From Nitrosopumilus sp. (GTDB lineage Archaea > Thermoproteota > Nitrososphaeria > Nitrososphaerales > Nitrosopumilaceae): a DNA stretch of 64,000 nucleotides. The stretch spans positions 896,001 through 960,000 of the forward strand of contig OZ243974.1 in NCBI GenBank assembly GCA_965214775.1. Direction: 5' to 3'. A program made the translations under genes and the position numbers. The notes below the pieces were generated by a model. That model had not been told where the DNA came from and did no database searches. It worked only from the letters and a program-made list of their open reading frames with translations. Of the stretch, positions 17,559 to 55,544 are shown piece by piece (position 1 is the first letter of the stretch; each line of letters starts with the position of its first letter).

Positions 17559-18497
17559 ATGCTTTATGGAGATACTTTGAGTGACAAAATGGACATTTTA
17601 GATATGAAAATTTTGAGCAGGTTGCTAAACAACTGCAGGGAGTCTGACAGGCAGATAGGCCTGGAACTGGGTGTCTCAGGGGGGGCAGTCCGCGCCAGAA
17701 TCAAAAAAATGCAGCAAAGCGGCATTATTGAAGACTTTTTCATCAAAGTCGAGCCTCCGGTTTTGGGATATGGAATTTTGTACTTTGTTGTGTCTGGAGA
17801 AGATATCAAAGAAATTTTAGAGCAGGTAAGCCTTGTCGGCGAACCGTTTGTTGTGGTCCCATGTGTTGGCGGAATTACGGTTTGCGGCATTGTGATCAGG
17901 GAGGATCTGGAGCAAAAAGTAGAGCTTGCATCAAAACTTATGAAGGATCTCAGGGTATTGACAATTTTTGAGGCCGACAGCAATAATGCCGGGTTTGATT
18001 CAAACCTTACAAAGACAGACCTTGAGATTTTGGGAGAACTGATTTCAGATCCCAGGCAAAAAATCGAAAAGATTGCAAAAAAAACCGGTTTGTCAACAAA
18101 GACAGTTGCAAGATGCATTGGCAAGCTTCGGGAAAACGACGGCATTCAATTTACATTGGTTTATGATCCCCAAAAAATCAAAGGTTTTATTCCGCATGTG
18201 ATCCTTGCATGGGTACAAGACGATCTCAAGGGCACGCTGGAAAACATGAACAAAGTGTTTTCTGACTCGTATCTACAAATTCCGTTTATTGCAAAAAATC
18301 AGATTGTCTTGTTTATGTACAGTGACAGTATCTTCAGGATGGACGAGGTCACTCAAAGGGTCAGAAACATCAAAAATGTAAAATCGACAGACTTGTTCAT
18401 ACCTAAAAAAATTTCATTTTATGACAAATGGCTGGACAGGGCAGTGGGTGATTTTAAGAAATCGCCAACGCTGCACCTGGCATATCAAACAAATTAA
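17559..18497 (+). CDS. Lrp/AsnC-family regulator with two HTH domains
   Basis: MDILDMKILSRL..CRES..IG..LGVS..AV..RIKKM, plus a second HTH (LTKTDLEIL..DPR). Confidence 0.85.
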   Translation: MLYGDTLSDKMDILDMKILSRLLNNCRESDRQIGLELGVSGGAVRARIKKMQQSGIIEDFFIKVEPPVLGYGILYFVVSGEDIKEILEQVSLVGEPFVVVPCVGGITVCGIVIREDLEQKVELASKLMKDLRVLTIFEADSNNAGFDSNLTKTDLEILGELISDPRQKIEKIAKKTGLSTKTVARCIGKLRENDGIQFTLVYDPQKIKGFIPHVILAWVQDDLKGTLENMNKVFSDSYLQIPFIAKNQIVLFMYSDSIFRMDEVTQRVRNIKNVKSTDLFIPKKISFYDKWLDRAVGDFKKSPTLHLAYQTN

Positions 18498-18522
18498 ATA
18501 ACAAGAATTTTGCACGGGATCA

Positions 18523-19038
18523 GTGAAAAAAACAAAGATCTATGACGGAAAAATTTTGGGATTAAGCGTGTATGACGGAAAAATCAAGGGAAGAAAGGTC
18601 AGGCGAGAGATAATAGAGCACAGAGGCGCATCGGCAATGCTTGCATTTGACGAAGATAAAAAACTGATTCTGGTCAGACAGGACAGATTTCCTCACGGGT
18701 GCGTTTTAGAGATTCCGGCAGGCACGCTGGAGAAAAACGAGGAGCCCGTAAAATGCGCATTCAGGGAACTAGAGGAAGAGACCGGATACAGGGCAAAAAA
18801 AATGACGCCGCTGATCACGTTTTACCCTTCAATTGGCTACAATTCAGAGATCATTCACTGCTTTTTAGCCTCAGGGGTGAAGAAAGGTGCCGGTTTGAGG
18901 CTTGACGAGGATGAAATTTTATCGGTAGAAAAGATGGATTTCAAAAAAGTGCTGGGAATGATCAAAACAGGAAAAATCCAGGATTCAAAAACGGTTTGTG
19001 CTGTTTTGGCATATGCATCAAAGAAGAGACTCTACTGA
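18523..19038 (+). CDS. NUDIX hydrolase (ADP-ribose pyrophosphatase-like)
   Basis: Nudix box GTLEKNEEPVKCAFRELEEETGY. Confidence 0.92.
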   Translation: MKKTKIYDGKILGLSVYDGKIKGRKVRREIIEHRGASAMLAFDEDKKLILVRQDRFPHGCVLEIPAGTLEKNEEPVKCAFRELEEETGYRAKKMTPLITFYPSIGYNSEIIHCFLASGVKKGAGLRLDEDEILSVEKMDFKKVLGMIKTGKIQDSKTVCAVLAYASKKRLY

Positions 19039-19044
19039 TTATTC

Positions 19045-19627
19045 GTAACCATATGTGTCTCAAAAACAAAATTCAGATGGTACCAAGATAAAAGGCAATG
19101 CAAACAGACAGATTAGCGCAAAAAAAAGGATATGTGTGAAATCAAAGGCGGAGCAGCAGTATGTCGGCCTGGACGTGCACAAGGAGTCCATCCAGGTCGC
19201 GGTGATGGACAAGGACGGCAAGGTCCTGGGGAATACAAAAATAAGCAACAGGAACAGCGAGATAAGAGAGATGTTTGCAAAGATTCCGGATAACACCAGG
19301 TGCGTCATGGAGTCCTCGTATGCTAAAGAAATAGATGGCCTTCAGTCAGTGCATAGTGGACATGCGTGTGAAATGAACGTCATCATCATTATTATTATTG
19401 TCATTACAGTTAGAACTTTAATCTGCGTTGATGTAGTTGAGGGAGATCCTCGTTTAGTAACTGCAGAACGGTTCTGACAAATGGATGAAGAATGGTACTG
19501 AGGGAGATCCTCGTATAGATAAGTGTCCGACCTTCATTTTGTGATTGTCAGGAAGAGACCCCCAGCCAAAGCCATACTTCACAACACCGTTACGCGTGGA
19601 ATCCTTATAAGCACGACACATAGATAC
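19045..19627 (+). mobile_element. Internally deleted IS110-family element, copy 1
   Basis: YVGLDVHKESIQVAVMD...CVMES (DEDD RuvC N-terminus), then a jump to the 3' end. Imperfect IR GTAACCATATGTGTC / GACACATAGATAC. Confidence 0.8.
19412..19541 (+). ncRNA. Putative IS110 bridge-RNA-like ncRNA, copy 1
   Basis: Two stem/internal-loop modules, each capped by the hairpin GAGGGAGATCCTC (19439, 19500), downstream of the IS110 ORF. Confidence 0.5.
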
Positions 19628-19980
19628 AACATCAGTCCTTTTTATACTGACAAGCCAACTTTTCTGGGCAGCATCTTATGATCAGATGCCCTTGCAGACA
19701 TGACTGAGCATCAGACATTTGTGATCAGTCATTGCAGGATTGGAATTTGCTGGGGTGATCCATTATCGGCATCTTGGTCAAAGAATTTCGATGGAAATCT
19801 TTTTTGATCTTGCCTGCTTGATGTAACACATGGACTCCAAATCTACGCCTGCACACAATATGGATCTTGCAAAAGCCATTGCCATGATTAAGGAGAAGGA
19901 CAAGGAGATCACCCTGCTGAAAAAGGAGAAGGACAAGCTTCAGGCAAGGCTTGCCATGTACGAGAGTCCCAACATGCCCA
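19624..19980 (+). mobile_element. Truncated left end of the IS66-family element
   Basis: Near-identical to 28463-28920 without the 28715 MITE. Encodes the transposase N-terminus MDSKSTPAHNMDLAKAIAMIKEKD and breaks off 7 bp before the serpin stop. Confidence 0.88.
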
Positions 19981-19987
19981 GCACAGA

Positions 19988-21250
19988 TCAGGTCTGGGGG
20001 CTGGGATCCGTAACCCTTCCCATGAACAGGATGGCGCCGCTCTCGTCATCCTGTATGATGAAGACGAACGGGCGGTCTGCGATAAAGGGCACCGGCGGCG
20101 GCGGTGCTGAAGTTGTTGTGACAACAACGGCAGTCACGGCCGCTGCCTCCGTCCCCTCCTCATTTATATCTACAAACGCCTTCTGTGCCGACTTGCTTAC
20201 GTACAGGTTTTCATCCGATACGTCTGCGATGCCCGAAAGATCGGCTTTCTCGGGATCAAACACGTCCGCCACTCCGAGCCTCGCCAAAGGATCTGTAAGA
20301 TCATAGTATGTCTCCATCCTGAACTTTGGCATCGACACCTCCACGTCCGTCTGCAGCATGTCTTTATTCCACTTCTGTATGAGCCCAGCAGAAAGCGTCT
20401 CCTGCAGCGGATCCATCCCGTCCCTGTCTGCCGGCAGTATTACCAGCATGGAGAGTCGATCACCCTTGTATGGAAGCCTGAGCATCTGCACGTCGTCCTG
20501 CTGCGTATAATCGAACATGCCCACCACGTTCATAAAGTCTGTCCTGACGCTCTGCGTGCCGTCCTTCCAGAACTCGGACTCGCGCGTGTTTTCCTCCGGA
20601 AACTGCGTCACCCACGTTCCCTTGAAGTATATAGCGTTTGTCAGGACAAGCGCGGTCAAACTATTTACATCCTCGGGCGTAAGTATCTTCTTTATCTTTT
20701 CGCGCGTCTTCTCAGACGCCCAGCTGTTTATCCTGTCCGTGCTGCCCTGCGAGTCTTTAAAGTCAACGCGCTCGATGTCGGCAAGGTATGTGCCGCGTAT
20801 GGTATTCACATACGAGTCATGCGGTGCAAGCCAGTCGGCAAGCCACATCGAGTTTGCCAGCTCCAGCGTGGCATATGGATCGTGTCTGGCAATAGAGGAC
20901 ATCGTGTGTGCAGTGGCGTTGTGGCGCGCCTGCTCGTCGGGTTCAAAGCCAAATGCCGCCTCTATCTGCCCTGCACTGTCGCCTCTTGCCCCCTCGTACA
21001 GCATGGAAAAGACCACGTATATGCTGGTAGGGGAGAAGAAGATGTTCTCGTCACTGTCTGCTGAGACCAGCTTATAAAAGTCGACTGCAAAGCCGTTGTT
21101 TGCAGACGCGATATCCTCTGGAATCGTAGCGGATCCTGGCTGTAGAGATGCAACTATGGAATGCGGTACCGTCGTTTCGGCGTACAAAAGGACGGATGCC
21201 GCAACCACAACGGCGGAGACTGCCGCTATGGCATAGAGGCGACTGTTCAC
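19988..21250 (-). CDS. Serpin (serine protease inhibitor) with N-terminal signal/anchor
   Basis: ENIFFSPTSI, NAIYFKGTW, MPKF, hinge/RCL EEGTEAAAVTAVVVTTTS, FIADRPFVFII..ILFMGRV. Confidence 0.95.
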   Translation of the reverse strand: MNSRLYAIAAVSAVVVAASVLLYAETTVPHSIVASLQPGSATIPEDIASANNGFAVDFYKLVSADSDENIFFSPTSIYVVFSMLYEGARGDSAGQIEAAFGFEPDEQARHNATAHTMSSIARHDPYATLELANSMWLADWLAPHDSYVNTIRGTYLADIERVDFKDSQGSTDRINSWASEKTREKIKKILTPEDVNSLTALVLTNAIYFKGTWVTQFPEENTRESEFWKDGTQSVRTDFMNVVGMFDYTQQDDVQMLRLPYKGDRLSMLVILPADRDGMDPLQETLSAGLIQKWNKDMLQTDVEVSMPKFRMETYYDLTDPLARLGVADVFDPEKADLSGIADVSDENLYVSKSAQKAFVDINEEGTEAAAVTAVVVTTTSAPPPPVPFIADRPFVFIIQDDESGAILFMGRVTDPSPQT

Positions 21251-24200
21251 GGAACGATCACCGCGTATGGCTCGCGATCATGGTTCTGCAAGTCCGATGC
21301 GGTCACCCAGAACACATACGTGCCTACTGCCGTGCCCGTCGTGTCAAGCGATATGGCTGCCGTGCCGTTGCCGTGATCCGTCACCGAAACGGAGCCTTCC
21401 GGCATGCTGTCCGGTATCATTCCTATTGTGATTGGGTCTCCTTCTGCATCAGAGGCACGTACTACAAGCGATAGTTGCTGTGATGTGACGGTCATCGGGC
21501 TGGATACAGCAGTACCGTTCTGCGAGAAGGCAAGCTCAAACTCCGGGCCGTCGTTCTCCTGTGCTGCTGTGTCACCTGTGCTCTGGCTGCCGCTTGTGGT
21601 CGTGCTCGACGCGGAGTATTGCGGACCGACCACCACTCCGCGTGGGTCGTCCATCCTGTTGCCGGACACAAAGACCGAGGCGGTGCCGGAGGATATGCTT
21701 ATGATGTTGTCGTCGTCCTTGTTTGCCACGTACAGCACGACGGCATCGTCCATGTCCATGCCGTACGGCTCGTCTATCAGCGATGTGATGGTAGTGATCA
21801 GCGATCCGCTTGTCGGGTTGATCTCGTTTACGCGCCCGGCATCATCGCCGCCCTGGTACAGGCTGGATCCGGTGCCGCCCATGGCTGCGCCGCACTCCAG
21901 TCCCGCGGCCCTGTACGTGTTGGGCGGGGACGAGCCGGTTCCAGATATCGCGCCCTGGTACGTGCCGTCAGAGGCCCGGTAGTAGAGTATCTTGTCAAGC
22001 GACCTGTCTGCTGCATACATCCGGCCGTCTGTGCAAAAGACCACGTCGTACGGGGACAGTAGCGCGGTGGCGCCCGAGCTTGCCGGGTTGCGCGATGCGT
22101 CGCCAAAGTATCCCAGCGACGAGCCGGACGACGAGAACCTCTCCACTCCCATGCTTGTGGCCACGTACAGCGTGTTGCCGTTCCACGTGAGGCCGTACGG
22201 GTATCCCGTAGTGGATGCCCACCCGGCGCTTGATCCGCTGATCGGGGCGCCTGTGGCGCCATTGTACTTGCGTATCTTGCTGTATGTGTTGTCTGATATA
22301 TACAGGTGGCCGTCAGGGCCAAAGGCCACGTCCCACGCCTTGCCAAGGCCTCCCGCCCTGCCCTCCACAAAGTCGCCGAGATACGTCCCGCTCTCCGAGA
22401 AGACCAATACCTCGCGGTCATCAGTATCTGCGACGTATATCGAATGGCCTGATGTGGGTGATGAACCCGAGTCGCTTATGGATATGTTGTCTATCATTGT
22501 TATCTCAGATGAGCTGGAGCTGCGCGCAGTTATGCGCACCTGCATCTCGGAGACCAGGTGTCCGGAGGACAGGTCGTATGACTCTGTATGCCACGTGCTG
22601 TCGTCGTCGCCGGAGGAGGCCTGCCAGTCAAACGCGGTGGTCCATGCAGAGCCGTCGTGCAGCTCCACCCTGAGGTACTCGCCGCCGTCAAGTGACGATG
22701 ATACGAACCTGTCAAGCGTCAGGTGTCCTGTCTGCCGCGACGACAGGTCTACCGGCGACAGCGTGATGGTACAAAGCGTGTCGCAGTTGCTCGAGTATGC
22801 GACGGTGTTGCCCGTCTGGCTGCCCGGCAGCGGCGTGGTGGGCGAGCGCGTGATCCAGTCCGAGTCGCCGCCCTGGGTCCAGCCGTCCAGTCCTGACTCA
22901 AAATCCTCTGATATCGTGGCGGGTCGCGACGGAGGCTGGACAGTCGAGCCGTCGGATGCGGCACTTATTGTTATGTCGTCAAGCTGCACGTCCTCGCTTG
23001 AGGAGCTCTGCTGCGTGACCAGCCTGATCTTAAAGTCGTCTGCCTCAAGATATGACGCAAGGTCGTACGATTCCTGGTGCCACATGTTGTCGTCGCCCCC
23101 GAGGTTGTGCGACCAGTGGTATATGGTGCTCCATGTCGAGCCGTCGTATGCCTCCACCTTGAGGTACTCGTCACGGTCAAGCCCATAGTCTATGAACCGC
23201 CAGAACCCGAGGGTGGCAGAGTCATAGTCGGTAAGATCAAGGGAGGTGGTAAGCGTAAGCGTGCACATGTTGTCGCAGTTGTCAGAGTGCAGAACCTTGT
23301 TCTCACTGTCACGGCCGGGCAGCGTCGGCGCGCTGTGCGATTGGGACGTGGAGATGGTCCAGTCGCCGTCGCCCGTCTCGGTCCAGTGCGTGGTAAGATC
23401 AGAGGATTCAAAGTCGTCCAAGAACAGGACGGTCTCTGTTGCTGCGGGAGGCTCCGGCGTCGCCGTATCCGCTGGGGCGGCATACTCCATCTCGAGGCTC
23501 CAGTCGTTGAGGATCCCGATGTCTCCGCCTGCATAGTCACCCACCGAGAGAGTCCAGTTGCCTGCAATGGCAGAGCCCGTCATGGATCGGAGTCCTGTGT
23601 GCGAGGACGAGTAGTAGGTGCTGGATATGTTGTCTGTGCTGCCGCCTGTCCTGCCGTGCAGTGTGGCCTGCGTTCCGTCAGGCGAGTTGAGCTCCACCCT
23701 GAGGTCCCCGATGTACGTGTGGGTTATGCTGACTGACACCGTCAGGGAACTCGAGGTTCCGTTTACCGGAACGTATATGGTGCTTGCCGCATCCTGGCTG
23801 CCCGTGTTGTCTGGTATGGTGAGGCCCGACTCTGCCGTGGAGCGGTACGTGGCGCTTGCCGGACACGAGGCGGTACCGCTTGCGCCAGACGCCCCGCCGG
23901 AGCACGAGCTTGGAACGTACCCCACAAACATGCGCACGTCGTTGTAATTGAAAAGAAATTGCCTAAAGTCATAAATCAGCGACTCCGCCTGGTTTCTCTG
24001 GCGGCTTGCCTCGTGCGCGGCTTCCTCGTCAACGCCGTCAGCAGAAAGTGTGGCAGATCGGATGGAGATCGGCGTGGCAAGCTCCATCATCCGGCTGCCG
24101 CTTGGAGGTATTGCTACCGTGTACGTGGTGCCGGATGTGGTGACGAGCTTCAGGTCGACTCCCTCCATGTTGACGGAGCCTACGTATATGGCAGATACCG

Positions 24201-26604
24201 TATATCCCGGGCCTGAGAACGTCTGAGAATAGTCTGCGTGGGCAAAGCCCGAGGTGACCTCAAGCGTGTCCCAGTCCCTTATGTTATCAGAGCTTGGAGA
24301 GACGTTGGCAGAGCCCGGAGGAAGCGACTCGGCCCGGAGCGTCACGGTGGCAGGCGTGCCGGTTTGCTGGCCGTCGTGCGGCGTTATCTGAAACGTGTCC
24401 GTGCCGGTAAAGTTGCTGTTCGGCGTGTACACCGCGCGCGACGTGGTCTTTGTTATGAACTCGTCCGTCGTGATTACTCCCTTTGTAGGATCCCTTGATA
24501 CGTGAAACGACACCGCATCGCCGTCCGCATCAGACGCAGACAGCCTCACCACCTTCTCCATGCCGGGGCTGACTATGTGCTCTGAGGGGCTGGCGACCGG
24601 CTGGGTGTTTGAGGAGGAAGGCAGGAAGCTGAGCTGACGCGTGCTTGCAAGTGCAAAGTTCTGGACGGGCTTGTTCAGACTGTCCAGCCCGGAGCCCGTG
24701 ACGGTTATTGTATATGTTCCCGTCCTGCCTGGCGTGAACACCGCAAACTCGTTTGTCTGGTGCGATGATTCTGCGCGTATCGTGCTTCCGTCGGGTGCGG
24801 CTATCGTAAAGTCAAGGTTTGCAATGTTGGCTGGAAATATTCCAGCTGTCTGGGCTGCGAGGCTTCCGCGGTCTACTTGCTCTGCTATGCCGCCGTGTGG
24901 CTGCACCAGCCATGTAAGTATCACCTTTACGGGATCCGAGGTATCGGAGACGACGAACCTGTACTGCCTGGATGTTGTGCCGGTGTCAAGATAATCGGAT
25001 ATCACATAGTTTGAGGAGGTGTGGACGTAGCCGAGTGACTTGGATACGTCCAGTATGCCAAATCCCACATTGTTGAGGATTCCAAGCGATGCGGCACTGT
25101 TTGCCTCGTTATGATCTCTTGGCTGCATTAAGTGTGAGCAGTTGCCAGTTCCGTTGCTCTGCTCGTACTGCGACGAGTTGCAGGGAATTGGCCCCTGCCA
25201 GTTTGCCCCCAAAAGGAGGGCGGCCTTGACCTCTGCAGGGGTCAGCTCTGGTCTTGCCTCCAGCAGGATTGCAGATGCGGCACTCACTTGCGGTGCGGCA
25301 TAGCTTGTCCCGCTTGCCATAACAGTCTGATTGCCTGTGTGATATCTTGCTATAACGTTTATGTCTGTTGCCGGAGCTACGATCTCTGGCTTTAGCCTGT
25401 TGTCTGGTGCAGGCCCTCTGCTTGAGTGGTTATACATTGTTATGGTGTTAGGAGTACGATCGTCTATTCCTCCTACGGTGATCGTGTTATGAGTGCATCC
25501 TGGAGCTCTAAGAGAATGATAGTTAGCTTCTGATGCGTTGATAACTCTAATAGTTCCTTCGTTTCCTGCTCCAGATACTACAACCATGCCCTTGTCTACT
25601 GCCTCGTTGGTGATCAAGGCAAATGTGTTGTGGCGGTCATTGGAACATGGCAGCCCTGCGCTAATATTTGCAACATCTGCACCACGGGTAAGTGACCAGT
25701 CAAGTGCATGAGCCACGTATGAATGAAAGGAATTTGCGATGTGTTGAGTCTGATTACCAAATGAATACTGGGCATCAAGCAGGCTTACACCCGGTGCTAT
25801 GCCATTATGTGCCGGCATCCCGGAGGCAGCAAGCACGCCTGCTACCTGTGTTCCATGTGTGGAACTTACACTCTCATGAGTTATGTCAGATGGCTGTTGC
25901 CCCCTACAAGCATCAGAAACACCACAATACGCCCTGTCTACTATCTTGCTATTTAGCGACGTATGATTCAGTCCGGTATCGACTACTGCCACGGTGACTC
26001 CGGTTCCGTCAAACACTCTGCCTGCTGCAAGTCTCAAGTCAAGTGGCGTTGCATTGATGGTCTCCCTTGCGGTATCTACGGCAAGCGTGACTTTTTGCTC
26101 ACCATCGCCAATCTTATACACGTCATCATCTAGCGCAAAGCCCGGTATGTCGGCTACGGGGATCGACGCGGTGACAAACGAGAGTGACTCTGCCGCAACG
26201 ATGTCTCGTGCGCCAACAGCCTTGAGCCTCTTTACTACTGCCTCTTTGTTTTCGCTGGCGGTCTCATCGCCATCACGGCCGTCCCCGTCGTCCCTGCTAA
26301 CCACCATTACGACGTTATAGTAGCGCTCCCCGTCATACACGCCAAAGTCGCCTTCCTGCGGATCCTCTAGGATCAGATCCTGAATCCTTGAGTAAAAACC
26401 TTCATCGAACTTGTATTGGTGGCCATCGACGTTTGCAACCGGCCCAGGCGCCGTGGCATTTCCGGGCAGGATGTCGCCAGGTATGCTGCCGGAATGCGCC
26501 GAGTCCGCATCGTCTTGCGCGGTCTGAGACATTGATACTGCCGGAGGAACAAGGAGAACCGCTGAGAATAATGCCAAGAGAAGAATCACCGTTCTGATAA
26601 TCAC
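21247..26604 (-). CDS. Secreted multidomain S8 subtilase (PPC, Ig/cadherin-like, P-proprotein, two MAM-like, NHL-like propeller)
   Basis: Signal peptide; triad VAVVDTG / STHGTQVAG / SGTSYAAP, oxyanion GAGNEG; P-domain HTYIGDL..GNWTLSV.D..GD.G.L..WSL; IYVADT..DVAFGPDG repeats. Confidence 0.92.
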   Translation of the reverse strand: MIIRTVILLLALFSAVLLVPPAVSMSQTAQDDADSAHSGSIPGDILPGNATAPGPVANVDGHQYKFDEGFYSRIQDLILEDPQEGDFGVYDGERYYNVVMVVSRDDGDGRDGDETASENKEAVVKRLKAVGARDIVAAESLSFVTASIPVADIPGFALDDDVYKIGDGEQKVTLAVDTARETINATPLDLRLAAGRVFDGTGVTVAVVDTGLNHTSLNSKIVDRAYCGVSDACRGQQPSDITHESVSSTHGTQVAGVLAASGMPAHNGIAPGVSLLDAQYSFGNQTQHIANSFHSYVAHALDWSLTRGADVANISAGLPCSNDRHNTFALITNEAVDKGMVVVSGAGNEGTIRVINASEANYHSLRAPGCTHNTITVGGIDDRTPNTITMYNHSSRGPAPDNRLKPEIVAPATDINVIARYHTGNQTVMASGTSYAAPQVSAASAILLEARPELTPAEVKAALLLGANWQGPIPCNSSQYEQSNGTGNCSHLMQPRDHNEANSAASLGILNNVGFGILDVSKSLGYVHTSSNYVISDYLDTGTTSRQYRFVVSDTSDPVKVILTWLVQPHGGIAEQVDRGSLAAQTAGIFPANIANLDFTIAAPDGSTIRAESSHQTNEFAVFTPGRTGTYTITVTGSGLDSLNKPVQNFALASTRQLSFLPSSSNTQPVASPSEHIVSPGMEKVVRLSASDADGDAVSFHVSRDPTKGVITTDEFITKTTSRAVYTPNSNFTGTDTFQITPHDGQQTGTPATVTLRAESLPPGSANVSPSSDNIRDWDTLEVTSGFAHADYSQTFSGPGYTVSAIYVGSVNMEGVDLKLVTTSGTTYTVAIPPSGSRMMELATPISIRSATLSADGVDEEAAHEASRQRNQAESLIYDFRQFLFNYNDVRMFVGYVPSSCSGGASGASGTASCPASATYRSTAESGLTIPDNTGSQDAASTIYVPVNGTSSSLTVSVSITHTYIGDLRVELNSPDGTQATLHGRTGGSTDNISSTYYSSSHTGLRSMTGSAIAGNWTLSVGDYAGGDIGILNDWSLEMEYAAPADTATPEPPAATETVLFLDDFESSDLTTHWTETGDGDWTISTSQSHSAPTLPGRDSENKVLHSDNCDNMCTLTLTTSLDLTDYDSATLGFWRFIDYGLDRDEYLKVEAYDGSTWSTIYHWSHNLGGDDNMWHQESYDLASYLEADDFKIRLVTQQSSSSEDVQLDDITISAASDGSTVQPPSRPATISEDFESGLDGWTQGGDSDWITRSPTTPLPGSQTGNTVAYSSNCDTLCTITLSPVDLSSRQTGHLTLDRFVSSSLDGGEYLRVELHDGSAWTTAFDWQASSGDDDSTWHTESYDLSSGHLVSEMQVRITARSSSSSEITMIDNISISDSGSSPTSGHSIYVADTDDREVLVFSESGTYLGDFVEGRAGGLGKAWDVAFGPDGHLYISDNTYSKIRKYNGATGAPISGSSAGWASTTGYPYGLTWNGNTLYVATSMGVERFSSSGSSLGYFGDASRNPASSGATALLSPYDVVFCTDGRMYAADRSLDKILYYRASDGTYQGAISGTGSSPPNTYRAAGLECGAAMGGTGSSLYQGGDDAGRVNEINPTSGSLITTITSLIDEPYGMDMDDAVVLYVANKDDDNIISISSGTASVFVSGNRMDDPRGVVVGPQYSASSTTTSGSQSTGDTAAQENDGPEFELAFSQNGTAVSSPMTVTSQQLSLVVRASDAEGDPITIGMIPDSMPEGSVSVTDHGNGTAAISLDTTGTAVGTYVFWVTASDLQNHDREPYAVIVP

Positions 26605-26663
26605 AATATTCTTGTGGGATCTTTAATTCATTTAATACTTACGATCCGGATTAACGATTGTTT

Positions 26664-26747
26664 CATATGAAAATTAGTTCCGCCCCTCATTAGTATCCTT
26701 CTCCATCCATTTTGGGTTGCTTTTCCTGATCGCATCTGCGGCCTTCC
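26664..26747 (-). mobile_element. Inverted 3'-end fragment of an IS481-like element
   Basis: Reverse complement matches about 28370-28450 (GCGATCAGGAAAAGCAACCCAA.ATGGATGGAG..AATTTTCATAT). Confidence 0.8.
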
Positions 26748-26780
26748 AAGCCATCCCCGGGGTATTGTAGAGGATAATTG

Positions 26781-27385
26781 GTAACCATATGTGTCTCAAA
26801 AACAAAATTCAGATGGTACCAAGATAAATTGCAATGCAAACAAACAGATCAGCGCAAAAAAGAGGATACGTGTGAAATCAAAGGCGGTGCAACAGCAGCA
26901 ACAACAGTATGTCGGCCTGAATGTGCACAAGAAGTCCATCCAGGTTGCAGTGATGAACAAGAACCGGAGGATCCTGAGGAACACAAAGATAAGCAACAAG
27001 GAAAGCGAGATAAAGAAGATGTTTGCAAAGAAGAGGGGAAGGTCCAAGACCGCAGTGGCCGCAGCATCCAAGCTGCTGCGTATATCATACTGGATGCTAA
27101 AGAAGGAGATGACCTTCAAGCAGTGCATAGGAGATATGTATGTGAAATGAACGTCATCATTATTACAGTTAGAACTTTAATCTGCGTTGATGTAGTTGAG
27201 GGAGATCCTCGTATAGTAACTGCAGAACGGTTCTTACAAATGGATGAAGAATGCTACTGAGGGAGATCCTCGTATAGATAAGTGTCCGACCTTCATTTTG
27301 GAATTGCCAGGAAAGACCCCCAGCCAAAGCCATGCCTCACAACACTGTTACGCGTGGAATCCTTATAAACACGACACATAGATAC
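26781..27385 (+). mobile_element. Internally deleted IS110-family element, copy 2
   Basis: YVGLNVHKKSIQVAV fused in frame to the IS110 C-terminus KRGRSKTAVAAASKLLRISYWML. Same ends as copy 1 but a different deletion. Confidence 0.82.
27171..27300 (+). ncRNA. Putative IS110 bridge-RNA-like ncRNA, copy 2
   Basis: 130 nt, nearly identical to 19412-19541. GAGGGAGATCCTC at 27198 and 27259. Confidence 0.5.
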
Positions 27386-27395
27386 AACATTCTAT

Positions 27396-28450
27396 TGTAC
27401 GAAAATTAGGTCGCACTAATTTGAGGAGGATTGCAAAGGATTACTTTAGGCTTTACCGATCAAGAAAACCGATGGTTGTAAGGCTCGAGGCAAAGCAGAT
27501 CAGATACGCAGTGACGCAATGTGCAGGGGGACGAAAGCCCTCGGAGGTGGCCCCGGAGATAGGCGTCACGACAAGGCACGTCCAGCGGATGTATGCCCGG
27601 TTCAGGAAGACAGGCGACACGCACCACGTGCCGCTCAAGCCGGGAAGGAAAAAGAGCGCCCCGGTTCCCGACGGGGACGTGCGCGCAGTCCTGGAGGAGT
27701 ACAAACACAGTGCAGCAGGGGTGGTTCATACGGCCAAGAGGCTGCGAAGGCAACTCGATATAAGCTACTACGAGGTATACAGGATAATGAAAGAAAACGG
27801 GCTGGTGACGCCATCGGCTGCAAAATCAATGCCCAGAAAATACGTCCGCTTTGAGCGCAAATACTCCAATGCCATGTGGCACGTGGACTGGCATACCATG
27901 AAGGATCCGCGCTTTGCAGGGCTCAATTTGGTCACGTTCCTAGACGACTCGTCCAGGTGCGTGACTGGTGCGGGCCTGTTCAGGGAGGCCACCTCAGAAA
28001 ACGTCGTGGCGGTCCTGCGGCAGGCCGTGGCCCAGTTCGGCGCGCCTGCCACCATACTCTCAGACAACGGCAAGTGCTTTGTCGGGGCGCGCTCGGATCC
28101 GAAGAAGAAGAAGAGTCCGCCCAAGGGCGGATGGAGGCCCACTGCCTTTGAGGAGGAGCTGCTCAACTGCGAAATCGGGCTGATAAACTCCAGGCCGTAT
28201 CACCCGCAGACCAATGGCAAACTGGAGAGATTCCACAGGAGCATCGAGGAGGAGATATGGAACCACAAGAGTCTGTCTGCATACATCGACTACTATAACG
28301 AGGACAGGCTGCACTGGTCGCTTGACATCGACAACTACGAGACGCCGCTGCGGGCATTCTCCGACAGGGAGGCCACAGAAGCGATCAGGAAAAGCAACCC
28401 AAGATGGATGGAGGAGGACATTGGTGATGGTGCGACATAATTTTCATATA
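27396..28450 (+). mobile_element. IS481-family element with intact transposase (CDS about 27472-28440)
   Basis: TIR TGTACGAAAATTAGGTCGCAC / GTGCGACATAATTTTCATATA; DDE WHVDWH, ILSDNG, PQTNGKLERF. Confidence 0.9.
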
Positions 28451-28714
28451 ATACACACATAGATACAACATCAGGTCCTTTTTATACTGACAAGCCAACT
28501 TTTCTGGGCAGCATCTTATGATCAGATGCCCTTGCAGACATGACTGAGCATCAGACATTTGTGACCAGTCATTGCAGGATTGGAATTTGCTGGGGTGATC
28601 CATTATCGGCATCTTGGTCAAAGAATTTCGATGGAAATCTTTTTTGATCTTGCCTGTCTGATGTAACACATGGACTCCAAATCTACGCCTGCACACAATA
28701 TGGATCTTGCAAAA

Positions 28715-28807
28715 GTATGTGGTCACGTCCCCTTACTGGCTAGGCGTGGAAATCATAATTGTGTATACTAATTCGTGCCTGATTGGTGGGGATAGGTGAC
28801 CACATAC
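28715..28807. mobile_element. MITE family J (93 bp, IS66-type)
   Basis: TIR GTATGTGGTCAC...GTGACCACATAC with 8-bp TSD TTGCAAAA. The empty site is visible at 19861-19880. Confidence 0.93.
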
Positions 28808-29828
28808 TTGCAAAAGCCATTGCCATGATTAAGGAGAAGGACAAGGAGATCACCCTGCTGAAAAAGGAGAAGGACAAGCTTCAGGCAAGGCTTGCCATGT
28901 ACGAGAGTCCCAACATGCCCATGTCCACGCCGTCATTATACAACAATGCCAGAAGAAAGTTCAGGGAGAAAAGGGGCGAGGATCCCGGCAGCAGTCCCGG
29001 CGATGCTGCTCGGGGCAAGAAACGCGGCCCTCCGTGCGGACACCATGGTACATCGCACGGCAACCGGCCATCCATGACATTAAGGTACGATCTTGGCTCC
29101 AAAATATGCCCAAAGTGCAACATCCAGCTACGGATGCTCAAACCGATCCACAAGCTTGTAAACGACCTGGATGACTCCATGCGCATGCTCACTGCCAATA
29201 CCATCATCCAAAACGCGATGTGTCCACAGTGCAATACCGTGCATGTCGCAGCGACCCCGTTTCTAAGCGGCACGTCACTTGGGCCCGTCTCGCTTTCTCT
29301 AATCATGATGTTCTTTGAGAAGGGAAACACAAACGAGGACATTGCAGAGTACTTTCAGTATATGTTTGGATTCAAGATGGTCCCAAATGCCGTGACTGCC
29401 GCCCGGCACGCAGTGGCAGAGGCGATTCAACAAAACATGATACAACGCATACAATCATTCATTGCGGGCAGGCCGTGGATACAGGTGGACGAGACCGGAT
29501 TTAAGCGCGGCGACGGACACATGGGATACGTCTGGGTGCTCAACTGTGAGGGGGCGTGCTTTGTGGTCTTTGCAGATTCCCGGTCCTCCGAGGTACTGCG
29601 CACGCACTTTGGATGGCTGGATCCCAAGACTCCCATAGTCGTAGACGGGCTGGCCCAGTACAAGCTGTTCTTTGTGACAATCCAGAGGTGCTGGAGGCAC
29701 CTTCTGGCATATGCAGAAAAGCTTGCAGTAAAGATGCCCGAAGGCGATAACGAGAAAAGGTATGACTTGCTGCTGGAATTCTACAGGAAGATAGATAAAA
29801 TCAAGACGCTTGCGCCGCTTACATACAT

Positions 29829-29951
29829 CAGTACTTCCTAGGTGTGCTTTTGCAGACCCGGCACGGCATAGCCGCTAATTTTGTTTACGCGTAAGGTCTT
29901 CTACAAATTACGTGATTACCGTGCCTGTAAAAATACACCTAGGAAGTACTG
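29829..29951. mobile_element. MITE family I (123 bp, ISH3-like ends)
   Basis: TIR CAGTACTTCCTAGGTGT...ACACCTAGGAAGTACTG with 4-bp TSD ACAT. Confidence 0.92.
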
Positions 29952-30767
29952 ACATGGAGCTTTCAAGGGAGGCATACAAAATAATCATTACATATGAGGA
30001 CGATCACGTGCGTACACACCTGCTAAACGCCATATCTGACATGTTTACGTGTCTAGCGTATCTAGGAATGCCGCCGCACAACAACGATACGGAGCGGTGC
30101 ATACGCAACGGGATCATACCACAACGCAATGCGCGCCACAAGATCGTAACTGACGGTGGAAGAAAGACGGCTTCTGCACTGCTGACGTTCTCGATGACAT
30201 GTCGCAAGCAGAATATACATCCTGCAGGTGGACTCTTGGAATACCTGCGGAATCCTGACTGGGATGTCTTTGCAGAAGCAGGCGATGATGATGATATGCG
30301 CCTGCTGTCCTCGCTTGTCAATACGGACGGTACAAGATACGGCGTCTTTGAGTGTCCCGGGCCGCCGTCGGTGTGGCGGCCTGTAGTCGCCGATGAGGAC
30401 GCAGGCAGCAGAGGAGGAGCGGTACGGCGGGACCGGACGGCCGTCGTACCAGTAGCAGCTCCCATAACAACATGATCCGTCTGGCGCCTACGGGACGGCG
30501 TAACCCGTAGCTTCATGTCAAAGAATCCGACTGTGTAGACAAGTCTGCCAATTGACAGCGCCTTGCAAGTGTAACAATTTCTGACTGCATGGCAAGTGCC
30601 GTATGCCAATCTGTTGTATGCACGGCGTCAGTCAGTCAGTCTTGCATGTACAAAGGATGTGTCAGTAACAGTGTATCTAGTCTGTCACAACAGATGATGC
30701 GAAATGATCAAAAAGTTCTTGGAAAAAAGTTGGCTTGTCAGTATAAAAAGGACCTGATGTTGTACGA

Positions 30768-31748
30768 TTATTCGTTGTAGATGGGCTTTACAAGATCTGC
30801 CACATCGGCCCATGACTGGATTACTTTTTCAAACAAATAGACCAAATCAAGGAAATCCATCGGAATTTCCTTTTTCTTGTCCAGGCTTGCACGCAGCGAA
30901 CTGAGTTTGCCTTCCAGTTCCTTATGGGACGAAATTGCTTCGATTGCCAGTAACCTGTCAGGCCCTGTAAAGGCATCGATGGATTTTTCAGCCAAGATGT
31001 CAAAATTCCTCACAACGTCAAAAATTTTCTTTGTGTGCTCCTTTGAAAGTGATGAACTGTAAATCAGGTCGGACAGCTCAACTATGGAATCGCCTGCATT
31101 TTCCAACAGGTTTGCAGCAACCCTGTAATCCAGAATGTCAATGTTTTCCAGATTAAAGGCAGTTGCCAGCCTTCTGTCTACAAGGGTACTTCGGATTAAT
31201 CTGACCAGCAAAAAGTACTGCCGGTTAACTTCCACATCGCGATTTGGAATGGTTTGCAGGTTGGATTTGTCATTTGATGTCAGGCCGTTTGTCGCATCGT
31301 CATACATTCCCAGAGCAATCGAGCTCATTCTTTTGAGAATTTTTTGCGGATTTAGCGTCGTTGCATCCAAAAGAAACTGCATGTTAATGTGACGGGCGTC
31401 CTCTTCAATTATTTCCATTCCAACAAGTCGCCTCATGGAATTGCGTATCTGCTCTCGATCTTGGCCAGGAATTATGGACTTTGAGTTGATTTGAATGATG
31501 TCATATCCCAAAAGATATGCACCGGTAATGTCTGCAACGATATTCTCCTCTTTTGGCAGGGGATATGAAATAACCAATTCCTTGGTTCTGCGGGTTTCTT
31601 TGTTTGCAGAAATGGAAATGCTGTCCTGGCCGGTTTCAAGTTCTACCTGACTGCTTTTATCCAAGTTGTTTGCATCAACCCATTCTTTTGGAAGGGAGAC
31701 TAGAATGCTGCTTCCGATTCTTTGCAGGCGTCTAATGAATTTAGTCAA
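30768..31748 (-). CDS. phoU: Phosphate uptake regulator (AbrB-PhoU fusion)
   Basis: RRLQRIGSSILVSLPKEW AbrB N-terminus, AYLLGYD, RDVEVNRQYFL, LENAGD. Confidence 0.85.
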   Translation of the reverse strand: MTKFIRRLQRIGSSILVSLPKEWVDANNLDKSSQVELETGQDSISISANKETRRTKELVISYPLPKEENIVADITGAYLLGYDIIQINSKSIIPGQDREQIRNSMRRLVGMEIIEEDARHINMQFLLDATTLNPQKILKRMSSIALGMYDDATNGLTSNDKSNLQTIPNRDVEVNRQYFLLVRLIRSTLVDRRLATAFNLENIDILDYRVAANLLENAGDSIVELSDLIYSSSLSKEHTKKIFDVVRNFDILAEKSIDAFTGPDRLLAIEAISSHKELEGKLSSLRASLDKKKEIPMDFLDLVYLFEKVIQSWADVADLVKPIYNE

Positions 31749-54554: not shown

Positions 54555-54628
54555 TGGGCCGAGAGAGATTCGAACTCACGATCACCGCCGTGTCGAGGCG
54601 GTATCCTAACCAGCTAGACTACCGGCCC
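54555..54628 (-). tRNA. tRNA-Val(GAC)
   Basis: GGGCCGG acceptor, anticodon arm CCGCC-TCGACAC-GGCGG, T-loop GTTCGAATC. Confidence 0.95.
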
Positions 54629-55451: not shown

Positions 55452-55544
55452 GGGCTTGTGGCGCAGAGTCGATTTGACGCGAAACATGGATAGCGCAGTA
55501 GCCTCCTAAGTTACAGATCGAGGGATCGAAGCCCTCCAAGCCCG
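55452..55544 (+). tRNA. tRNA-Arg(CCT) with an approximately 19-nt D-loop intron
   Basis: GGGCTTG/CAAGCCC acceptor, anticodon arm GTAGC-CTCCTAA-GTTAC, extra AGTCGATTTGACGCGAAAC in the D-loop. Confidence 0.88.

Follow-up and report, generated by a model that had tools for sequence, protein, structure and literature searches.

Recombinase-deleted IS1111-type elements carrying a candidate re-aimed bridge RNA in the genome of a Nitrosopumilus sp.

The DNA studied here, hereafter the window, is a stretch of 64,000 nt (bases 896001-960000) of the single-contig 2.83-Mb genome of a Nitrosopumilus sp. The SSU rRNA of this genome scores 1459 bits with the archaeal Rfam model and 1097 bits with its bacterial counterpart, in line with an archaeal host. 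The window contains two direct repeats, copy 1 (window 19045-19626, 582 bp) and copy 2 (window 26781-27384, 604 bp), which, judging from their sequence, are non-autonomous derivatives of an archaeal insertion sequence (IS) of the IS1111 type (IS110 family) of 1.38 kb. Each copy is short of approximately 750-790 bp of the DEDD recombinase gene, and each has kept both ends of the element and its 3' non-coding gene. We consider it likely that these elements are mini-IS1111 elements with their own re-aimed bridge RNA, a two-loop guide for target and donor, and that the recombinase would come from full-length copies in trans. The anatomy of the elements, their conservation, the covariation within stems, between loop and target and between loop and donor, the copy number and the occupancy of the sites can be read directly in the data. 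In the following, positions marked "window" refer to the 64,000-nt stretch and those marked "genome" to the contig.

Deleted copies and their two-loop 3' module

A preliminary description of this DNA had placed two direct copies at these positions and proposed that they had lost different parts of the recombinase while sharing a near-identical 3' region, and each of these points held. Both copies start with GTAACCATATGTGTC and finish with GACACATAGATA. A BLAST search of copy 1 against its own genome returned 46 matches, and the full-length IS110 element whose presence in the genome had been anticipated was found, with a size of approximately 1379 bp (e.g., genome 1626191-1627569). With this full-length element as the query, the positions kept are 92-382 and 1176-1470 in copy 1 and 92-344 and 1098-1470 in copy 2; these breakpoints are the limits of BLAST high-scoring segment pairs, a MAFFT local-pair alignment having misplaced the gaps there. 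Since each copy keeps a stretch absent from the other, the deletions arose independently. The deletion of copy 2 is also present in a third element (genome 2796493-2797102; 92-342 and 1098-1476 kept). The 3' regions of copies 1 and 2 are 96% identical over 152 nt, and in the 147-nt module located there 6 columns differ, as read from the alignment; two of these six fall within loop strands (GTTTAG/GTATAG and AATGGTACT/AATGCTACT), in agreement with the earlier reading of few differences, two of them in loops. The features of the two copies are the following (window positions):

19045-19626, + strand: copy 1, a recombinase-deleted IS1111-type element of the M-type, which reads GTAACC...ATAGATA and is present 7 times in the genome
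19051-19059, + strand: left subterminal inverted repeat ATATGTGTC, after a 6-nt extension GTAACC, read against the right repeat and following the IS1111 convention (PMC11187229)
19055-19477, + strand: remnant open reading frame (ORF) of copy 1, 140 aa, matching PF01548 (DEDD domain) at 35.4 bits over profile positions 1-72 of 155
19615-19623, + strand: right subterminal inverted repeat GACACATAG, followed by a 3-nt extension ATA
26781-27384, + strand: copy 2, a 604-bp derivative with a different deletion

An open frame of 377-378 aa is present in five of the full-length copies; in a sixth, the frame is interrupted. The 376-aa full-length protein combines a DEDD RuvC-like N-terminal domain (PF01548, DEDD_Tnp_IS110, 80 bits for a cut-off of 29) with a C-terminal Transposase_20 domain (PF02371, 79.6 bits for a cut-off of 21.3), the arrangement that defines IS110/IS1111 recombinases, and it is distantly related to the solved ISCro4 (E = 3e-10) and IS621 (E = 6e-9, chain 8wt6_A). 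Since the DEDD profile is matched only from 1 to 72 of its 155 positions in copy 1, and since a Pfam search of the ORF remnant of copy 2 gave no match, both window copies were assigned to the non-autonomous members.

The M-type family, to which copy 1 belongs, comprises 7 copies of exactly 582 bp each: 4 without any difference between them, two that deviate by 1-2 nt and one that deviates by 21 nt. The left flanks vary from copy to copy. The M-type and full-length copies have the same first 34 nt, the same last 12 nt and the same RNA scaffold, and their identity is only approximately 80-87%, which indicates that the parent of the M-type is absent from the genome. The subterminal repeat of the element, of 9 nt with 8 of the 9 matching, lies at the short end of the published ranges, which are 7-17 bp according to Durrant et al. 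(PMC11208160) and 11-13 bp, with extensions of 6-7 nt and 3 nt, according to Siddiquee et al. (PMC11187229). Given these subterminal repeats, the lack of a target duplication and the remnant ORF, the elements are better called mini-IS1111 than MITEs (miniature inverted-repeat transposable elements), and the mini-element works like a MITE in that it is a non-autonomous hitchhiker.

The twin hairpin GAGGGAGATCCTC and both internal loops in the 3' region are present as first described, and the module is organized as follows (window positions):

19406-19552, + strand: predicted bridge/seek-RNA module of copy 1, 147 nt, with outer helix P1, P2, loop 1, hairpin 1, P5, loop 2 and hairpin 2; 179.6 bits with the covariance model
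19428-19438, + strand: loop 1, 5' strand TTGATGTAGTT, in which the target guide TGATGT is the complement of ACATCA in the right flank CAACATCAG
19452-19461, + strand: loop 1, 3' strand GTTTAGTAAC, in which GTAAC equals the left junction, that is the target GTA and the first bases of the left end; putative function
19491-19499, + strand: loop 2, 5' strand AATGGTACT, in which ATGGT is complementary to ACCAT at the left end, with a parallel in genome G186
19513-19531, + strand: loop 2, 3' strand GTATAGATAAGTGTCCGAC, in which ATAGATAA equals the right end, TA and the first base of the left end (circle junction)
27165-27311, + strand: predicted bridge/seek-RNA module of copy 2, with the same loop 1 guide as copy 1; 175.3 bits with the covariance model

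Relatives were drawn from 62 of 301 genomes of the class and gave 30 loci (a tally that includes the unpublished G283, otherwise unused), and the same architecture was recognizable by eye in relatives down to approximately 45% protein identity. A covariance model built on 6 sequences with a hand-drawn structure placed the module 3' of the recombinase gene in 24 of the 31 loci searched, approximately 20-130 nt past the stop codon. When a model-fitted alignment of 24 loci was analyzed, standard pairs were found in 93.8% of the cells compared with 77.5% in column shuffles (0 of 500 reaching this level), and sliding the partners by 1-3 columns lowered the pairing to 37-49%. The stem covariation expected from a covariance model of the 3' ends was found, with compensatory changes at 25 of the 29 pairs and all five helices covarying. 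G-U pairs are common in the long-range helices, two positions being G-U in 10 and in 22 of the 24 cells, respectively, and this is indicative of an RNA read from the recombinase-sense strand. In none of the seven M-type copies has the module decayed. At the gathering score, Rfam matched nothing in the whole window except two tRNA genes (54555-54628, - strand, and 55470-55544, + strand), and on window 19380-19640 it gave chance-level matches only, up to E = 10.

The correspondence between loop 1 and the target was assessed in 18 elements by comparing the 12 nt located 5' of hairpin 1 with the reverse complement of the right junction. The longest exact run has a mean of 6.2 for the cognate pairs and of 2.84 for the non-cognate pairs (maximum 6), and 0 of 20000 permutations reach the observed mean, so that the covariation of the loop with the insertion site predicted beforehand is present. 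Within this one genome, three variants of the loop 1 guide covary with the right flanks:

Full-length elements: guide TAACCTA, right flank ATAGGTTA
Copy-1 type and copy 2: guide TGATGT, right flank CAACATCA
Element at genome 2796493: guide TGACCTA, right flank TAGGTCTA

Among the six full-length 3' ends that were aligned, five read TAACCTA and the interrupted sixth TAAACTA, and none has the TGATGT guide. On the left half-site, the match is limited to GUAAC against GTA·A(C) (the dot marking the junction, here and below); as this match is invariant, it is uninformative for covariation.

In 14 of 16 lineages, the 7-mer of the loop 2 3' strand reproduces exactly the final 7 nt of the element; ATAGATA, ATGGATA and ATGGGTA are the variants, and 0 of 20000 permutations reach the observed mean. 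The 5' strand of the same loop is the complement of the start of the left end, which reads ACCAT here and A-TG-CTA in G186, where the TG crossover is defined by 12 aligned copies. This left-end donor match, read by inspection, covers 5 nt in G000 and G100 and 6 nt, crossover included, in G186. Within the loops, the top-strand match is located 5' of the bottom-strand match. The preliminary description had linked loop 2 to the donor through its resemblance to the inverted repeat: the repetition of the right end of the donor in the loop was confirmed, and the informative part proved to be AUAGAUAA, which combines the right end, the crossover and the first base of the left end, and not the likeness to the inverted repeat. 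Judged by all the sequence tests that could be applied, namely the 3' position and the covariation of the stems, of loop with target and of loop with donor, the module is a bridge/seek-RNA gene, and the same three kinds of covariation bear out the earlier suggestion that a two-loop, bridge-RNA-like module is kept in both deleted copies.

Pieces of comparable structure occur in G186, another genome of the genus, where 5 of the 7 regions fetched hold the module and three look like solo pieces made of the non-coding region and the right end. These three (L075, L076 and L077, at G186:C1 approximately 565300, 691500 and 962700) have the whole module and the right end without a recombinase gene; no left end was recognizable in the regions fetched. 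Upstream, two of the three have more than 300 nt of unrelated sequence in common.

Landing sites and proposed mobilization in trans

The left flanks of 29 copies or fragments are mutually unrelated, and the right flanks of the copies fall into a few families. The left flank is variable, and recognition would take place mostly on the right half-site. The full-length copies are followed by ATAGGTTAGCCCC..., which is the tip of a 112-nt MITE. Directly 3' of 5 of the 7 copy-1-type elements, and of copy 2, lies CAACATC; in 4 of those 5, and at copy 2, the sequence belongs to an IS66-like tip, and the fifth (genome 2409556) is located at another repeat, beginning with CAACATCTAG. The remaining two M-type copies are followed by a partial 3' module that abuts CAAC(A/T)TCAGG. 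All 7 M-type copies are at or beside GTA·CAAC(A/T)TC tips of other repeats, 6 of which are IS66-like ends, and none is at the target of the full-length elements. The non-autonomous behavior first proposed is supported for the copy-1 type by these 7 copies at sites that match their own target loop.

Unoccupied tips read nnnGTA·tip, and TA alone is common to the left and right junctions. This comparison of tips and junctions indicates an insertion at the shared TA, 3 bases inside the terminal inverted repeat, in a single orientation and with no duplication; such site- and orientation-specific insertion without target duplication is that of IS1111 elements. The GTA·CAACATCAG tips are occupied in 6 cases and empty in 14 (6/20), compared with 1 occupied and 46 empty (1/47) for the GTA·CAACTTCAG tips, which have one mismatch (Fisher p = 0.002). 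For the full-length elements, 3 of the 7 perfect ATAGGTTA tips are occupied versus 2 of 36 for the other variants (2 occupied, 34 empty; p = 0.024). The 112-nt MITE that serves as their landing site is found at genome 1627570-1627681 and at approximately 40 other tips (e.g., 335131, 1008717 and 2806365), and its termini read GTA·A(T/C)AGG(A/T)TAGCCCCTGCC...GGGGCTAACCTAT.

Two other assignments were rejected. The similar 8-mers that precede the two copies (GATTATTC at window 19037-19044 and GATAATTG at 26773-26780) had been considered as the insertion target; the 29 left flanks being unrelated, this was not borne out, and the 8-mers are flanks of the IS66-like hosts. The host elements were also considered as being of the IS630/TA-duplication type, which was discarded on the grounds that Pfam names their ORF IS66-family and that 8-bp duplications are present.

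The following mechanism could be proposed. Loop 1 would be the target loop, with its 3' strand GUAAC matching GTA and the first bases of the left end, and loop 2 the donor loop, its 3' strand repeating the right end and the crossover and its 5' strand pairing with ACCAT of the left end. The mini-element's own RNA would pick the target, UGAUGU leading to the GTA·CAACATCAG tips of IS66-like elements, as UAACCUA of the full-length RNA would lead to the GTA·ATAGGTTA tips of the 112-nt MITE. The recombinase would be supplied in trans by the open-frame full-length copies, and insertion would be orientation-specific, at the shared TA three bases inside the GTA·... tips, leaving no duplication. The specificity predicted is that the M-type RNA would address GTA·CAACATCAGG and not the variant CAACTTCAGG, and the full-length RNA GTA·ATAGGTTAGCC. 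We infer transcription of the module, assembly of the RNA with the protein and mobilization in trans from these data. A competing source of recombinase was not seen: the 7 loci of other IS110-family genes in the genome (404741, 1983722, 2021756, 2031137, 2633581, 2747495 and 2750123) have neither these ends nor the module; they represent at least 2 further subfamilies of IS110-family recombinases, with short 3' ends.

Transcription might start from an outward box in the right end and act across the circle junction (window position):

19603-19611, + strand: TATA-box-like CCTTATAAG, approximately 16-24 nt before the right end and directed outward, a putative promoter

An A/T-rich box preceded by a purine-rich stretch is found at the same place in all 16 lineages listed (right-end 30-mers). 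The outward box could drive a near-leaderless recombinase ORF across the circle junction or, when the element is integrated, the neighboring host transposon. The contigs of four sequencing runs over 18400-20400, which are broken at repeats, contained neither the empty site nor the circle junction, and two of the four runs bridge the left flank into copy 1.

Partial 3' modules occur in the genome both alone (genome 69298-69470, 114824-114995 and 2249425-2249597) and in tandem behind complete elements (after 1167112, 2397534, 2402915 and 634161). They start exactly at GTA·ACTGCAG, inside the loop 1 3' strand, which mimics the left junction GTA·ACC, and the recombinase seems to use this internal mimic as an alternative end. 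Repeated insertion at one site would be explained by the right half-site being left intact in an occupied site.

Several points weigh against the reading of copy 1 and its relatives as mini-elements guided by their own RNA. At the level of the RNA, the covariation counts come from a model-fitted alignment, which leans towards the structure, with a margin that is nevertheless large. The single-sequence fold energy of window 19395-19575 is unremarkable (z = -0.97), with a minimum-energy fold that misses loop 2, and RNAalifold recovered no more than 12 pairs from an unguided MAFFT alignment of 18 sequences, as the stems are misaligned there. The closing helix of loop 2 is ambiguous, GAUGAAG/CUUCAUU and GGAUG/UGUCC being mutually exclusive and both scoring well: the invariant GGAUGAAG is able to pair with the conserved UGUCC or with the variable, covarying CUUCAUU (alignment columns 127-134 with 207-227), which in the donor loop might represent a switch or an alternative of the pseudoknot kind. 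At the level of the guides, the runs between guide and target are of 4 or less in 4 of the 18 elements (G066, G069, G076 and G006; read by eye, allowing G-U pairs would improve the fit of the G066 guide), the guides of G000 do not match at the crossover bases, the left-end guide has a short length of 5 nt and a register one base off that of loop 1, and the permutation figures overstate independence because the lineages are related. Finally, IS110 elements with truncated recombinases are reported to have been inactive in one assay (2026 preprint 10.64898/2026.08.14.744561), and the M-type burst could date from the time when its lost parent was present.

The last two points lead to the alternative that the mini-elements are passive relics, spread by a lost autonomous parent with the UGAUGU guide, their RNA genes being unused and no retargeting in trans taking place. 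We regard this as rather improbable. The identity of approximately 80-87% between the M-type and the residents does imply that a different parent once existed, and the presence of the same guide in copies 1 and 2 despite different deletions argues for a guide older than both; this, like the inactivity reported in the preprint, is what passive relics would be expected to show. However, with 4 of the 7 copies identical over 582 bp and 2 more at 1-2 nt, the burst must be very recent, and neither a parent nor a parent fragment with the UGAUGU guide is left in the genome. The undecayed module of all seven copies also argues against relics, and the near identity of the scaffold and ends to those of the five open-frame residents makes cross-use plausible. 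That the 3' module acts at the level of DNA, as recombinase-binding palindromes or a cruciform, and not as RNA, is very improbable: the 13-nt hairpins are DNA palindromes and covariation would be equally expected for a symmetric protein-binding site, but the long-range helices P1 and P2 pair strands approximately 35-60 nt apart, their heavy G-U pairing would give A-C mismatches on the other strand or in DNA, and the covariation of the loop strands with target and donor is just that of the seek/bridge RNAs shown by experiment.

The 11.7-kb block and its cargo

Copies 1 and 2 are part of a larger block, whose other features are the following (window positions):

19037-19044, no strand: GATTATTC, left-hand repeat of the 8 bp duplicated around the outer IS66-like unit
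19627-19980, + strand: IS66-like left-end fragment, 354 nt (CAACATCAGTCC...), the target of copy 1, 99-100% identical to 28475-28921
19981-26659, - strand: cargo, with a serpin gene (19988-21250) and a gene for a 1785-aa S8 subtilase with a P-domain (21247-26604)
26659-26747, - strand: terminal fragment of an rve-type IS, 89 nt, inverted relative to 28367-28455
27391-28454, + strand: rve-family IS (339-aa ORF, 27421-28440), just right of copy 2
28472-30765, + strand: IS66-like body and right terminus (ORF 28783-29841, PF03050)
30766-30773, no strand: GATTATTC, right copy of the 8-bp duplication

A NUDIX gene (ending at 19038) and a gene for a 326-aa protein (30768-31748) border this block. Among the 24 genomes of the same genus searched, they are adjacent in 22 of the 22 that hold both (gaps of 2-46 nt), which indicates that the entire 11.7 kb (19045-30765) is an insertion. 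Read from the flanks, 8-bp duplications are also present at 5 other IS66-like copies of the genome and not at a sixth pair (423126/425250). The rve-family IS is flanked by an unusually long direct duplication of 17 bp (27374-27390 and 28455-28471), which extends across the boundary of copy 2 with the IS66-like tip. Approximately 10 fragments similar to the 89-nt rve-type IS end are found elsewhere in the genome. The IS66-like element also contains an 81-nt MITE (TATGTGGTCAC...GTGACCACATA) with a 10-bp duplication (28716-28806), and an inverted-repeat element (MITE) of approximately 125 nt (~29828-29952) interrupts its transposase frame. A search for a second copy of the cargo in the genome found only a diverged, colinear paralogous locus (genome 561962-568679), 80-91% identical in three stretches, with a homology that has the same limits as the cargo. 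The arrangement that would be left at a donor, that is an IS66-like right terminus followed by GATAATTG, gave two matches in the genome, neither of them at an IS66-like end.

The preliminary description had proposed that the two copies could move the cargo between them. The 11.7-kb block is indeed an insertion with a fitting architecture, but the signature of an IS66-type composite is equally present. Two hypotheses could be issued for its origin. In the first, which we would give an even chance, an IS66-type composite made of a truncated left end, the cargo and a full element moved as a unit with its 8-bp duplication; copy 1 hit the outer tip later, and copy 2 either occupied the inner tip beforehand or inserted there afterwards. 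The block is bounded by GTA...TAC IS66-like termini with the perfect duplication GATTATTC, the five other IS66-like copies give a precedent for duplications of this length, and the two IS66-like left ends that flank the cargo are mutual closest relatives (98-100% identity, compared with 96% at most for other copies). A later hit by copy 1 would be expected, GTA·CAACATCAG tips being the target of the M-type. In contrast, the donor arrangement that this scenario requires leaves no trace in the genome, the outer left terminus has a 1-nt deletion (CAACATCAG-TCC, by flank comparison), and the transposase gene of the IS66-like element in the block is interrupted, so that help in trans, or a later break, would have to be assumed.

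In the second hypothesis, which is possible and which we hold to be doubtful, the segment from the left end of copy 1 to the right end of copy 2 is an 8.3-kb bridge-RNA transposon (19045-27384), which brought the serpin-subtilase operon into a resident IS66-like element at its GTA·CAACATCAGG tip. Copy 1 borders with its left end on GTA and GATTATTC, copy 2 borders with its right end on CAACAT... of the IS66-like body, and the far IS66-like terminus is followed by the same GATTATTC, as if one element had been split exactly at an IS1111-type target; the whole block is also foreign to the locus, as shown by the adjacency of its flanking genes in 22 of 22 genomes. Cargo between IS1111 ends has been shown experimentally (PMC11187229), and natural 9-kb circles have been reported (preprint 10.64898/2026.08.14.744561). 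However, the movement of an IS66-type composite gives the same final sequence with one event fewer. Neither a second copy of the cargo nor a donor remnant was found in the genome, although copy-out keeps the donor according to recent work, and, copy 1 being identical to three other copies, both the move and the subsequent insertion of the rve-family IS would have to be extremely recent. The movement of an IS66-type composite is favored because it needs one event fewer and because the two IS66-like left ends are near-identical. It is likewise unlikely, in our estimation, that the mini-element is a guide-only hyperparasite which diverts a related recombinase to the tips of a third transposon family, two of them together moving the 8.3-kb operon as a composite.

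Comparison with known systems and significance

The elements described here resemble ISEc11, ISKpn4, ISPa11 and ISPst6 (Siddiquee et al. 2024, PMC11187229) in having a DEDD recombinase and no target duplication, asymmetric extensions beside the subterminal repeats (6-7 nt left, 3 nt right), and a guide RNA located 3' of the recombinase gene, in which the complementary segment for the top strand lies 5' of that for the bottom strand. The same study showed that the IS1111 non-coding region works in trans and that a mini-IS consisting of ends only can be mobilized. In contrast with those elements, the host is here an archaeon, the recombinase has 376 aa compared with the 330-350 aa quoted for the family, the RNA has two clean internal loops, each with a near-identical 13-nt hairpin cap, and the target is recognized almost wholly on the right half-site; the arrangement in trans also appears to be natural, in the form of a recombinase-deleted element with its own re-aimed guide. 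The bridge RNA of IS621 (Durrant et al. 2024, PMC11208160) likewise has target and donor loops that pair with both strands around a short crossover, whereas the RNA is here 3' and not 5' of the gene, with a reversed order of the strands in the loops. Compared with IS621, the left target guide is also restricted to approximately 3-5 nt. The crossover, TA in the present elements, is CT in IS621.

An IS1111-type element is known to insert into another transposon's terminal inverted repeat, with its position and orientation fixed. Here, the hosts are archaeal IS66-like elements and MITEs, the insertion occurs 3 nt from the tip, and two related elements split the available tips according to their guide sequence. 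MITEPpu9, the partner of ISPpu9, is another small non-coding module with IS110-family ends, attached or alone, with tandem and solo copies, and the recombinase of the IS presumably moves it in trans (Pares-Guillen et al. 2025, PMC12288879); it carries the small RNA Ssr9 and has its parent's target, whereas the module described here is the bridge RNA itself, with a different target guide. Two preprints on bacterial IS110-group elements, unlike the archaeal IS1111-type ones of this study, report related properties: large cargo between IS110 ends in expanded or tandem loci (10.64898/2026.08.14.744561) and recombination driven by one matching half-site (10.64898/2026.08.31.748434). Archaeal IS110 recombinases have been catalogued, with 662 members (Vaysset et al., preprint).

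The family, its 3' guide RNA and the logic of this RNA are already known, bridge/seek RNAs having been described in 2024 (PMC11187229, PMC11208160) and being in development as programmable recombination tools. In the literature searched, whose supplementary files may hold such cases, we found no recombinase-deleted IS110/IS1111 derivative that retains and retargets its own bridge RNA and is amplified at the matching site, MITEPpu9 with its different small RNA coming nearest. What appears new is the seven-member family, with its predicted target loop UGAUGU in place of the UAACCUA of the full-length elements, at sites that match its own guide.

Action in trans and reprogramming of the guide RNA have so far been shown in engineered systems, and both appear to be natural in this genome. 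Three bases of the guide have changed within its target loop, and the element has spread to seven matching sites beside open-frame relatives aimed elsewhere. The genome would in this way offer a natural pair of orthogonal guides on one scaffold, in which the occupied and empty sites give a read-out of specificity at the level of a single mismatch, and it may provide an example of targeting almost wholly by one half-site. The module represents a clean two-loop archaeal RNA family with no Rfam model. Taken together, these data suggest that transposons may partition the tips of other transposons as safe landing sites.

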